Assembly: GCA_963621875.1 (NCBI GenBank)
Contig: CAVFFR010000001.1
Span: 15,940 to 79,939, forward strand
Length of the DNA: 64,000 bases
Source of the DNA: Bacteroidaceae bacterium
Lineage (GTDB): Bacteria; Bacillota; Clostridia; TANB77; CAG-508
Direction of reading: 5' to 3'
Position numbers and translations under genes: made by a program. Below, one piece after another: positions 58,955-61,610 of this stretch (the stretch's first letter is position 1; every line of letters starts with the position of its first letter). The notes under the pieces were generated by a model. The model was given only the letters and a program-made list of their open reading frames with translations. It ran no database searches and was not told the origin of the DNA.

Positions 58955-59602
58955 ATGAATAAAAGAATATTCAAAAAAATCTTAATTATAGCGATATTAT
59001 TTATGGTTTTATTTATGGCATATAGAATTATTAGTATATATGCCATTTTTTATAGTGAAGGGCAAGGAAACGTTACTCAAAATAATGCAACTTGGACAAT
59101 ATATTTAAATCAAACAAATGTAACTTCTAAAAATAGTAATACATTTGAAGTTGACACTTTTGAACTAGAAGAAAATAGCCGTGTTTCAACAGGGAAAATA
59201 GCTCCAGGCACAAAGGGAAGCTTTTATATAGAACTAGATCCAAAAAATACAAATGTATCAATAAGATACGATATAGAACTAGATAAAACACAAATATCAA
59301 ATGATAGCATAGAAATAATATCTATAGAAGAAATTGAAGAAGAAAACACTTTAACAAAAACAGCTGAAAGCACTTATACTGGAATAATGCCATTACAAGA
59401 AATTCAACAAGGAAAAATAAATAAAATCAAAGTAAAAGTAGAATGGAAAAATCTAGAAGAAAATAATAGAAAAGATACATTAATAGGAACAGGAAATAAT
59501 ACAATATTGAAAATTCCAGTAAATGTTAAAGTAACACAATATTTAGGAGAAGAAATAGAAGAATATATTCCAACTTCAGGAGAAAACAATGAAACTATTT
59601 AA
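58955..59602 (+). CDS. TasA/camelysin-like (M73 fold) secreted protein with a SipW-cognate-type signal peptide.
   Basis: Signal ...FMAYRIISIYAIFYSEGQ (compare TasA ...GGGTWAAFNDIKS). Core APGTKGSFYIELDPKNTNVSIRY matches TasA KPGDKLTKDFQFENNGSLAIK. Confidence 0.5.
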   Translation: MNKRIFKKILIIAILFMVLFMAYRIISIYAIFYSEGQGNVTQNNATWTIYLNQTNVTSKNSNTFEVDTFELEENSRVSTGKIAPGTKGSFYIELDPKNTNVSIRYDIELDKTQISNDSIEIISIEEIEEENTLTKTAESTYTGIMPLQEIQQGKINKIKVKVEWKNLEENNRKDTLIGTGNNTILKIPVNVKVTQYLGEEIEEYIPTSGENNETI

Positions 59603-60107
59603 TAAAATACTAGAGATAATCCTAGACATAATAATTGTTATTATATCAATAATTGTAATTATTGCATTAGTCTATGTTGTACAAACAAAAGTAATGAAAA
59701 AAGAAAATGCAAACTTATTTGGCTTTACTGCATTTGAAGTAGCGACAGGGAGTATGTCTGGAACAATAGAAATTGGAGATGTTGTATTAGTAAAAATAAC
59801 AAATGACATCCACGAAAATGATATTATAGTATATAAACAAGAAGAACATTTTATAACACATAGAGCCTTAAAAATAGATGGAGATACAATAATAACAAAA
59901 GGTGATGCAAATAGCAGTGCAGATGTTCCGATAACAAAAAACCAGTTATTTGGAAAAGTAATAAAAATCATCCCTAATGTAGCTATATGGAAGAAAGTTT
60001 TAACAACTCCATCAGTCTTAATTACAATAATAGTAACAATTGTATTATTGGGATTTGCTGTAAACTATGATACATCAGAAAAAACAGACAAAAAGGAGAA
60101 AGTATGA
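59589..60107 (+). CDS. Third intact SipW-like signal peptidase I.
   Basis: N-TM. TGSMSGTIEIGDVVLV (Ser box), FITHRAL (His box) and TKGDAN box. C-TM. Overlaps the preceding gene. Confidence 0.7.
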   Translation: MKLFNKILEIILDIIIVIISIIVIIALVYVVQTKVMKKENANLFGFTAFEVATGSMSGTIEIGDVVLVKITNDIHENDIIVYKQEEHFITHRALKIDGDTIITKGDANSSADVPITKNQLFGKVIKIIPNVAIWKKVLTTPSVLITIIVTIVLLGFAVNYDTSEKTDKKEKV

Positions 60108-60676
60108 AAAATAGAAAGTTGGCTAAGAAAATAATAAAATTACTAATACTTCTATTATGCCTAATATTATTAATCAGACTTATTTCTCTAACATTATCTA
60201 AATACGAAAGTAGTGCAAAAACAACTCCAAACATACAAATTGCATTTTATGTAATGAAAGATGACTTTCAAAGTATGAGTTTAAATTTAGACTCATTGTT
60301 TCCTAGCGATGAGCCAAAGATATATGGCTTTTCGGTTTCTAACCAAGACGGAGATAAAATATGTGCAACAGATATGGAATACACACTAAAAATTAGAACA
60401 ACAACAAATTTGCCAATAAAATATGATTTATATATGAATCAAAACTATAATGACTCTGGAGCACAAAGTATCATCAAGAGTGACAATATTGAGAAAGACG
60501 AAGATGAAACTTATTTTAGAATAATAACAACAGAAACAATTGAACTTACACACGATATACCAGTAACAAATACTTATCAATTGGTAGTGACATTCCCCGC
60601 AGAATACAACACGATTAACTATAAAGACATAATAGAAGGAATAGAAATAACCGTTGAATCAAAGCAGATTATATAA
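60104..60676 (+). CDS. TasA-like secreted protein, paralogue 2.
   Basis: Signal anchor plus SKYESSAKTT. Pattern LDSLFPSDEPKIYGFSVSNQDGDK is similar to the TasA beta-sandwich core. 190 aa. Start overlaps the sipW stop. Confidence 0.4.
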   Translation: MKNRKLAKKIIKLLILLLCLILLIRLISLTLSKYESSAKTTPNIQIAFYVMKDDFQSMSLNLDSLFPSDEPKIYGFSVSNQDGDKICATDMEYTLKIRTTTNLPIKYDLYMNQNYNDSGAQSIIKSDNIEKDEDETYFRIITTETIELTHDIPVTNTYQLVVTFPAEYNTINYKDIIEGIEITVESKQII

Positions 60677-60695
60677 CTTACGAAAGGATAAAAGT

Positions 60696-61610
60696 ATGCG
60701 AAAAAATTATAAAAAGCAACAAATATTAATAGTACTTATTTTAATATTATGCTTTATAGCAATAACTTCAACATTTAGCAGATATGTTTTAAATAGCATA
60801 AACAATTTTTTCGTAAGGACAAAAGATTTTTACTTTTTTAGCGATAAACTAAAAGAACAGAGAGCTGTATACCAAATTGATAATTGGAGTGGAGTAGACC
60901 CATACACAATAACAATAAATATGAACAGTATGGAAAATAGTCTAAAAAAAGTTGACTATGATGTAGATTATCAAATAGAATATATTTGTACTTCAAATGC
61001 TACATGTCAAATAAGCAAAACGGAAGGCACAATAAAATCAGATACAAACACAGACTTTTTTAATGTAGTCATTACGCCTAATACAACTATGGATACAGGA
61101 GATAGAGTAACCGTGTCAATAAAGGCAATATCTAATTCAAAATACAAAAAAACATTAGAAGGATTATTTACCCTAGTTGTAGGAAAAGAGCAATTATCAT
61201 ATGAGATAGTAGACTCAGCTCAAAGCCAATATTTAGATTTGAATATAACAAATACATTATCATATTACAAAGTACAAGAAGCGTTTGGAACATATAAAGT
61301 TGATGATAAAATTGATATTGACACATATTTAGCTTTAGAAGATGCAGACAAAAGCAAATGCTATTCTGCATTAATAACTTTAAAATTTGATCCCAATATA
61401 GTTCTATTAGATATGACAAATACTAATTACTTAAATGCTACCAATGTAACAACAAAGGAAATAAACGGTAGTAATTATTTAAACAGTTTAACATTTAAAG
61501 TAGAGCCAATATCAAGTACAGTAGTAAGGTTCTATAAAGTAGATATAACCCAAGACTATACATATCCGATTACAAATGCTACATCTATAATATCAGTAGA
61601 AATAAATTAA
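60696..61610 (+). CDS. TasA-like secreted protein, paralogue 3 (larger, 304 aa).
   Basis: RBS gaaagga. Signal MRKNYKKQQILIVLILILCFIAITSTFSRYVLNS. ORF-track start 60654. Confidence 0.4.
   Translation: MRKNYKKQQILIVLILILCFIAITSTFSRYVLNSINNFFVRTKDFYFFSDKLKEQRAVYQIDNWSGVDPYTITINMNSMENSLKKVDYDVDYQIEYICTSNATCQISKTEGTIKSDTNTDFFNVVITPNTTMDTGDRVTVSIKAISNSKYKKTLEGLFTLVVGKEQLSYEIVDSAQSQYLDLNITNTLSYYKVQEAFGTYKVDDKIDIDTYLALEDADKSKCYSALITLKFDPNIVLLDMTNTNYLNATNVTTKEINGSNYLNSLTFKVEPISSTVVRFYKVDITQDYTYPITNATSIISVEIN

Follow-up and report, generated by a model that had tools for sequence, protein, structure and literature searches.

Genes of the interval and conservation of the locus

The window analysed here is a 64,000-nucleotide (nt) stretch of contig CAVFFR010000001.1. 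Its interval 58955-61610 encodes three small leader-bearing proteins, called P1, P2 and P3 in the following, which a first-pass annotation had described as three divergent TasA/camelysin-like paralogues. The coordinates and the sizes of 215, 190 and 304 amino acids (aa) given there were correct, and the leader ends and core strings quoted for the proteins were found verbatim in the translations. An intact SipW-like peptidase gene at 59589-60107, omitted from the title of that annotation, is the fourth gene of the interval. According to the open reading frame (ORF) calls, the interval consists of four tightly packed plus-strand genes:

P1, 58955..59602, plus strand: 215 aa; predicted beta-sandwich protein and candidate filament subunit
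S26c, 59589..60107, plus strand: 172 aa; archaeal/endoplasmic reticulum (ER)-type (SipW-like) signal peptidase I, predicted to be active
P2, 60104..60676, plus strand: 190 aa with a mature domain of ~155 aa; candidate minor subunit
P3, 60696..61610, plus strand: 304 aa counted from the ATG, with the open frame extending upstream to a TTG at 60654

Neighbouring genes of the interval overlap or stand 20 nt apart, and plausible ribosome-binding sites (AAGGA, AGGAG and AAAGGA) were located upstream of the ATG codons of P1, P2 and P3. The four genes were therefore regarded as one operon. The S26c gene overlaps both P1 and P2, suggesting translational coupling. In a scan for promoters and terminators, this AT-rich DNA gave about as many matches as expected by chance, and a tRNA scan of the window detected none.

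Database searches at E ≤ 0.01 yielded 106 relatives of P1, 164 of P2 and 705 of P3. All of them originated from gut metagenomes and metagenome-assembled genomes (MAGs), bore no names and, apart from one stray match, had no precomputed Pfam domain. P1, P2 and P3 are real conserved genes. Inspection of P1 relatives in distant genomes revealed the same set of neighbouring genes. For a survey of the locus, one genome per species was scanned, and ORFs were called in all loci and classified with phmmer. P3 relatives were present in 74 species-level genomes comprising 81 loci. The host genomes were uncultured gut 'Clostridia bacterium', 'Clostridium sp. CAG:780/CAG:914', 'Eubacteriales' and 'Bacilli' MAGs, recovered from human (Hadza, Nepal, Brazil), goat, sheep and chicken guts. 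P3 was present in 81/81 loci. Nine loci lacked exactly P1-S26c-P2, and P3 there directly followed psS26, a pseudo-peptidase gene. As these three genes were missing as a unit, they constitute an accessory module, and P3 is a core component of the locus. The mean column identity was lowest for P1 (40%), intermediate for P2 (49%) and highest for P3 (68%).

Leader peptides, signal peptidases and predicted folds

P1, P2 and P3 all begin with a Lys-rich stretch followed by a hydrophobic helix of ~20 residues. The leaders end in IYA|IF in P1, TLS|KY in P2 and TFS|RY in P3. In the P1 family, the leader end followed the form [I/T]-Y-A-[L/I/V]-F in 52 of 55 members. The P2 family showed [L/Y/W]-S-[K/R]-Y and the P3 family [I/V/A/T]-F-[G/S/A]-R-Y, the latter in 60 of 78 members. 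Further proteins of the cluster carried related ends: P1like194, with [I/T]-Y-A-K-Y in 64/66, and T226 and T325, with [T/S/A]-Y-A-W-F in 62/65 and about 62/66, respectively. What these ends have in common is an aromatic residue at positions -2 and +2, a small residue at -1 and a small or beta-branched one at -3. The TasA equivalent is T-W-A|A-F, the mature chain in 8AUR starting with A-F-N-D, and plasmid-borne CalY/TasA proteins have T-Y-A|Y-F. By a rough estimate, ~3% of protein N-termini would show such a five-residue pattern by chance. In six families of the cluster, it was located where the hydrophobic helix ends. Based on this shared form, the leaders are close to the TasA/CalY type. The first-pass annotation had called them non-canonical, a description that does not apply to P1, whose consensus is essentially the CalY T-Y-A-Y-F, nor to P2 and P3, which have variants of the same motif.

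The available leader models did not register this similarity. TIGR04088 (cut-off 19 bits) did not match P1, P2, P3 or the leader of the giant protein encoded upstream in the window. It matched one of 37 P1 relatives (E 0.011), and T325 of the orthologous locus L001 reached 16.2 bits, below the cut-off. With a home-made TasA/CalY leader hidden Markov model, nothing was found below E = 1 in the 2,091 ORFs of the loci, the model being too narrow with its Gly-rich Bacillus leaders.

The window contains four S26 peptidase homologues, and a fifth, active copy (S26d) lies beyond the window end. In addition to S26c these are:

S26a, 56062..56643, plus strand: 193 aa; SipW-like signal peptidase I, predicted to be active; directly 3' of the giant gene
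S26b, 56615..57178, plus strand: 187 aa; decaying peptidase homologue, with Ser, His and Asp retained in the window copy
psS26, 58407..58940, plus strand: 177 aa; conserved pseudo-peptidase, directly upstream of P1 (or P3)

S26c matched TIGR02228 with 7.7e-19 and 68.1 bits and S26a with 1.8e-28 and 99.4 bits, both above the cut-off of 51.85 bits. Ser, His and Asp were kept in 66/66 orthologues of S26c. Among S26a orthologues, Ser and His were kept in 18/20 and Asp in 20/20. S26b, whose gene overlaps that of S26a, matched the SipW model under its cut-off (9.4e-12), and its orthologues kept Ser in 6/15 and His in 7/15 cases. The pseudo-peptidase psS26 gave weak SipW and TIGR02228 matches (2.4e-8 and 1.3e-5) and aligned with S26c with an hhalign probability of 96.9%. 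Its catalytic Ser and His were both replaced in 69/69 orthologues, yet the gene was always present. It also showed a weak match to DUF5305 (E 0.024), a domain proposed as an accessory subunit of signal peptidase I in a 2026 preprint. Altogether, three peptidase paralogues kept Ser and His (66/66, 42/42 and 18/20). As in SipW-dependent systems, a dedicated archaeal/ER-type signal peptidase I stands beside the leader-bearing genes, a synteny found in 70 loci.

The AlphaFold2 (AF2) model of P1, computed from a 37-sequence alignment, had a predicted local distance difference test (pLDDT) score of 76. It comprised a helix at residues 3-32, a low-confidence coil at residues 33-47 (pLDDT about 53 or lower) and nine strands. 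In a Foldseek search against 350,542 PDB chains, the TasA fibre 8aur_A held rank 1 with weak scores (E 2.1e-3, TM-score 0.38/0.36). Hyper2 tubes, CanA cannulae and AbpA bundling pili followed at ranks 8, 11 and 13, and a further TasA-superfamily fibre at rank 28. For this model, the enrichment of TasA-superfamily fibres among the matches is suggestive. The matches lean towards the proposed TasA-like nature of P1, but the scores were weak and the top one barely ahead of those of integrin immunoglobulin (Ig) domains. P1 may at best be a very distant member of the TasA superfamily.

The P1 family comprised 3,919 clusters at 50% identity (E ≤ 1e-3), and neither Pfam nor NCBIfam had a model matching P1. 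When the profiles of P1, P2 and P3 as well as T226 and T325 were searched against PDB sequences, no meaningful matches resulted. P1 has true paralogues elsewhere in the cluster. P1like194, encoded by a 194-aa minus-strand gene, was related to P1 with an hhalign probability of 99.8%, and 99.3% with the leader trimmed. For the more distant T226 (226 aa), the values were 95.3% and 77%. Both genes lie past the window end. P1 was tandemly duplicated in six loci. The N-terminal 22 residues of mature P1 were not more conserved than the rest (0.50 vs 0.53), so that conservation singles out no donor strand. In proteins from other organisms, P1-like domains occurred in fusions. They were N-terminal in proteins with LRR_5 or Ephrin_rec_like modules or a 3,424-aa body (P0357, P0419, P0437) and C-terminal to Laminin_G_3 in P0479. 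Such architectures would be expected of a subunit able to carry an adhesin.

The P2 family was characterised by the conserved motifs P..PY.Y.FS.SN and IRTTTNLP, and P2 had no match in PDB or Pfam. Pairwise BLASTP among P1, P2 and P3 returned nothing. The family profiles of P1 and P2 aligned over 180 columns with an hhalign probability of 95.5%, which fell to about 1% once the leader and the cleavage motif were trimmed. The shared signal therefore resides in the leader and not in the mature domain, and a homology of the mature domains was rejected after this control. The P3 profile was unrelated to those of P1 and P2, whether the leader was kept or trimmed. The designation of the three proteins as paralogues was not confirmed.

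In the AF2 model of P3 (pLDDT 84.7), a helix leads into two Ig-like beta-sandwich domains in tandem. Foldseek matched this model to tandem-Ig proteins of a generic kind, among them RbmA, the Vpr fibril and PapD-type chaperones. TasA was absent from the top 50. P3 had been placed in the TasA family on its leader and position, a placement not supported by its tandem-Ig fold, which is not the TasA jelly roll, and by these matches. Residues 29-52, just outside the membrane, were the best conserved part of the protein (0.86 vs 0.73). This juxtamembrane segment (60780-60851) reads RYVLNSINNFFVRTKDFYFFSDKL and contains RYV..FYFFSDKL. The string FYF[YF]SDKL was invariant in the family and resembles the mature CalY N-terminus YFSDKE. 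The mature N-terminus of CalY corresponds to the donor-strand region in TasA-type fibres. Two cysteines, C104 and C222, were also invariant, one in each Ig domain. P3 is a candidate anchor, base or assembly factor at the membrane.

Searches with models of the TasA/camelysin family were negative. PF12389 (Peptidase_M73) did not match P1, P2 or P3 at E ≤ 1. It matched 0/37 P1 relatives, 0/55 T226 relatives and 1/41 P2 relatives, the last with only E 0.048. A TasA/CalY alignment was compared with all cluster families in local, low-mact and global modes, and hhalign probabilities were ≤15% and not significant. The underlying profile was narrow, with nine Bacillus sequences (verified TasA and eight Bacillus plasmid genes). 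In the global alignments, three motifs were collinear at non-significant scores: the leader end, the strand pair 'L-K-P-G-D ... F-x-F-x-N-x-G' and a final strand ending in Q. The strand pair had counterparts in K-I-A-P-G ... F-x-I-x-I of P1 and I-Y-P-G ... I-x-V-x-N-x-G of T226. A P-G...N-x-G pattern is common to many bacterial Ig-like domains, and the collinear motifs are considered leads.

The McrB-like GTPase and other genes of the cluster

Outside the interval, the following genes of the cluster were present in the window:

c522, 46114..47682, plus strand: 522 aa, Lys/Glu-rich; always just upstream of the giant gene
giant, 47706..56039, plus strand: 2,777 aa with long GGxN-type repeats; candidate adhesin or cargo
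rev327, 57227..58210, minus strand: 327 aa without a hydrophobic leader; divergent from the psS26-P1 operon
c332, 61632..62630, plus strand: 332 aa, apparently cytoplasmic; between P3 and the McrB-like gene
McrB-like guanosine triphosphatase (GTPase), 62646..64000, plus strand: N-terminal 451 of ~506 aa; runs off the window end

The cluster has a fixed order of 18 genes: rev327 (minus strand), psS26, P1, S26c, P2, P3, c332, McrB-like, DUF2357, S26d, T226, P1-like (minus strand), c261, T325, c522, giant, S26a and S26b. The c522-giant-peptidase block stands either upstream of the cluster, as in the window, or downstream. Gene order was identical in the 74 species-level genomes, in which P3 identity falls to 44-50%. 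P3, c332, the McrB-like protein and the DUF2357 protein form the invariant core. The flanks of the cluster differed between genomes, and in L001 it follows rpsP-rimM-trmD-rplS.

The McrB-like protein has an N-terminal transmembrane helix and then a charged helical (coiled-coil) segment. For the full-length orthologue (L001:13685-15205), the best PDB match was E. coli McrB 6ut6 (E 2e-4), to which the Walker and signature motifs were aligned, and the transmembrane/coiled-coil region gave a weak FtsL-like match (E 5.9e-4). Walker A, Walker B and the motif GTINNDDST were invariant in 70/70 sequences. The latter can be read as NxD or NxxD (N-N-D / N-N-D-D) and aligns to the E. coli NTAD. The protein also matched the PADLOC defence-candidate model PDC-M26A (1.2e-34). 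The next gene in L001, which in the studied contig falls past the window end, encodes a DUF2357 protein (McrC N-terminal domain, 1e-10). It was found in 72/81 loci, and no nuclease domain was detected in a Pfam scan.

This arrangement recalls CoCoPALM, which was defined in one sentence as a McrB GTPase clade fused to an FtsB-like transmembrane/coiled-coil domain (PMC11090510, eLife 2024). Its authors speak of 'pilus assembly' and defer details to a 'forthcoming publication'. In the text searched, the putative pilins are not described, and no later paper using the name was found in the literature searched. The present locus has the same components: a McrB nucleoside triphosphatase (NTPase) fused to a transmembrane helix and coiled coil, a DUF2357 partner and signal-peptidase-family genes. 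It fits the CoCoPALM definition, its N-N-D-D signature agreeing with either NxD or NxxD, and the leader-bearing beta-sandwich proteins would be its 'pilins'.

The remaining genes were less informative. Pfam gave nothing at E ≤ 0.01 for the giant protein. Its leader ends in ..IIAFRDSRA, with the family consensus [IL][RKV]AF.[DN]S[RK]A, and its N-terminus was unrelated to P1, P2, P3, T226, T325 and TasA. The first-pass annotation had proposed it as a tip adhesin. As the N-terminus is not P1-like, this remains a guess. A relationship to the 3,424-aa P1-fusion protein P0357 was considered, and the comparison showed none. Family-model scans gave no match for c522, c332 or rev327. Judged by eye, c522, syntenic in 39 loci, is probably a coiled-coil protein, and the C-terminal half of c332, present in 79/81 loci, displays a faint EAL-like pattern. 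At the same position in 62/81 loci, rev327 is separated from psS26 by a 196-nt gap (58211-58406) containing the best promoter-like matches on both strands; a divergent promoter pair in this gap is suggestive. Beyond the window end, four more leader-bearing proteins are encoded in orthologous loci (L001:17195-20498). A W.EG.D.DC motif is common to the C-termini of T325 and c261, and the T325 tail GSDMALNMEFK closely resembles CalY GDSIALKMEFQ. The c261 protein has a transmembrane helix without a cleavage motif. Further upstream in the window (43462-45935), genes resembling Spo0A, a SpoIIID-like regulator (minus strand) and YabG were recognised by eye, which suggests a spore-forming host.

A candidate surface-filament locus

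Taking these results together, we consider it somewhat probable that P1, P2 and P3 belong, as exported components, to a single conserved surface-filament locus, with peptidase-processed subunits and an assembly or anchor component, and are not three TasA copies. The fibre with major and minor subunits envisaged in the first-pass annotation stands as a reasonable working model in view of the leaders, the peptidases, the top match of P1 to 8AUR and the adhesin fusions. The lack of any family-model match and the different fold of P3 tell against its original form. The three proteins would enter the membrane via the Lys-rich, ~20-residue hydrophobic leader, ending in a putative TasA/CalY-type site of the form [T/I/V]-aromatic-[A/S/G]|x-aromatic. 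The interleaved SipW/archaeal-type signal peptidases probably cut at this site. P1, a variable and sometimes duplicated predicted beta-sandwich with ~15 unstructured residues at the mature N-terminus, would be the likeliest polymerising subunit. It probably donates its N-terminal strand to a neighbour, as in TasA, BsaA and AbpA. P2 is the smaller partner from the same pilin-peptidase-pilin module and may be a minor subunit. P3 stands beside a cytoplasmic protein and the membrane-anchored McrB-like GTPase/McrC-like pair, a position in which a base, anchor or assembly factor is most likely and a repeating subunit is not.

Several features are shared with the TasA, CalY and BsaA systems of Bacillus and Clostridium perfringens and their dedicated SipW peptidases. 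These systems, too, have T-aromatic-A|x-aromatic where the leader helix ends, operons that include genes for archaeal/ER-type signal peptidases, and several small beta-rich exported proteins per locus. The mature N-terminus of P1 is unstructured in the monomer model like that of BsaA, and its last strand ends in a conserved Q like that of TasA (..V.V.Q in P1, ..F.A.Q in TasA). Polymerisation by strand donation was shown for TasA and AbpA (PMC9674648, PMC9245690), and a leader-tethered donor-strand model was proposed for BsaA (PMC11580942). TasA-superfamily loci were described as encoding signal peptidase I and accessory, minor and tip proteins (10.64898/2026.01.04.697558). The archaeal fibre loci (AbpA, AbpX, CanA, Tafi/TafE) are likewise multi-gene, with a TIGR02228-type peptidase, accessory proteins, minor subunits and tips, and archaeal TasA-superfamily fibres were among the top structural matches of P1. 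However, these fibres are archaeal or otherwise anchored (SLH, LPXTG), and no NTPase has been reported for them. The loci also differ in gene content. Five peptidase homologues, one of them conserved as a dead copy, are found here versus one in TasA/SipW loci, and the tapA-sipW-tasA and sipW-bsaABC operons are without a membrane McrB-like GTPase, a McrC-like protein and a giant protein. P3 has tandem Ig domains and was not TapA-like in any test run. It shares the two tandem Ig-like domains with PapD/Caf1M-type chaperones (Foldseek E about 1e-5), but the TM-score was only 0.25-0.36 and no sequence family matched. P3 also differs from these chaperones by its N-terminal membrane helix, and the host lineage is Gram-positive, without an outer membrane or usher. 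The likeness to PapD may be generic to tandem Ig folds.

A number of observations weigh against a TasA-like filament. None of the sequence models for the TasA family or for SipW-type leaders recognised P1-P3, and the comparisons with the nine-sequence Bacillus profile were non-significant. The structural match of P1 to TasA was not clearly above unrelated Ig-like domains, as integrin Ig domains matched at E 3.2e-3 and Gram-positive pilins and FimG were nearly equal. The mature domain of P2 had no detectable relative among the other cluster proteins in leader-trimmed hhalign comparisons. The AF2 monomers keep a long N-terminal helix, as an uncleaved signal anchor would, especially in P3. To our knowledge, no donor-strand fibre needs an NTPase, and the McrB-like pair is left unexplained by the model.

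A bolder version of the filament model would account for this pair, although we regard it as doubtful. The locus would encode Gram-positive pilus machinery of a third kind, different from both sortase and type IV pili. P1, the P1-like protein, T226 and P2 would be leader-tethered beta-sandwich subunits, cut by the SipW-type peptidases and polymerised at a platform of P3, the dead peptidase and the McrB-McrC pair, which would power or gate assembly or the display of the giant protein. The FYF[YF]SDKL segment of P3 would anchor or nucleate the fibre.

The continuous N-terminal helices of 30-36 residues in the AF2 models would also suit a different function, in which P1-P3 are uncleaved, membrane-anchored Ig/beta-sandwich proteins of a trans-membrane McrB-like complex, serving for example the export or wall-crossing of the giant protein. 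No fibre would be formed, and the peptidase homologues would mainly be scaffolds. The dead psS26, the decaying S26b, the invariant core of P3, c332, McrB-like and DUF2357, the motif-free helix of c261 and the giant protein, always encoded in the locus, are consistent with such a complex. The conserved catalytic Ser and His of three peptidase paralogues argue against it, as does the helix end, where the small residue and the flanking aromatics are conserved as for a cleavage site. The adhesin-module fusions and tandem P1 copies better suit exposed subunits than a fixed machine, and we consider this account unlikely.

Filaments resembling type IV pili, with the helices retained in the core, P1, P2, P3, T226, P1like194 and T325 as pilins and the McrB-like GTPase in place of a PilB-type motor, are quite improbable. 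The leaders lack the class III signal (short leader, G/A|F, Glu5), and no prepilin peptidase, PilC-like platform or PilB/PilT ATPase was detected among the conserved cluster genes in the scans run. The peptidases of the cluster belong to the S26 enzymes, and these cleave past the helix, at the outer face. Such filaments would agree with the lollipop shape of the models, with a long N-terminal helix and a beta domain, with the six or seven such proteins per locus, reminiscent of major and minor pilin sets, with an NTPase at the membrane and with the term 'pilus assembly' chosen by the CoCoPALM authors. A chance neighbourhood of an ordinary McrBC-like defence island and independent monomeric surface or matrix proteins, to which the PADLOC match and the usual role of McrBC systems in restriction (PMC11090510) could point, is very unlikely given the identical gene order in diverged genomes, the intact cluster between varying flanks, the GTPase's own transmembrane helix and the DUF2357 protein without a nuclease-domain match.

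P1-P3 represent uncharted families. The P1 family by itself comprises ~3,900 clusters at 50% identity, yet these proteins are covered by neither Pfam nor NCBIfam models. Among uncultured gut Clostridia and Bacilli with small genomes, a whole group carries the cluster as a fixed feature. The strict link of signal-peptidase-dependent surface proteins to a McrB-family NTPase would mean that the McrBC module serves a purpose other than defence. Should P1-type proteins assemble into donor-strand fibres, the principle of TasA-type matrices and pili would extend to abundant gut commensals, and CoCoPALM-class 'pilins' would be described for the first time.

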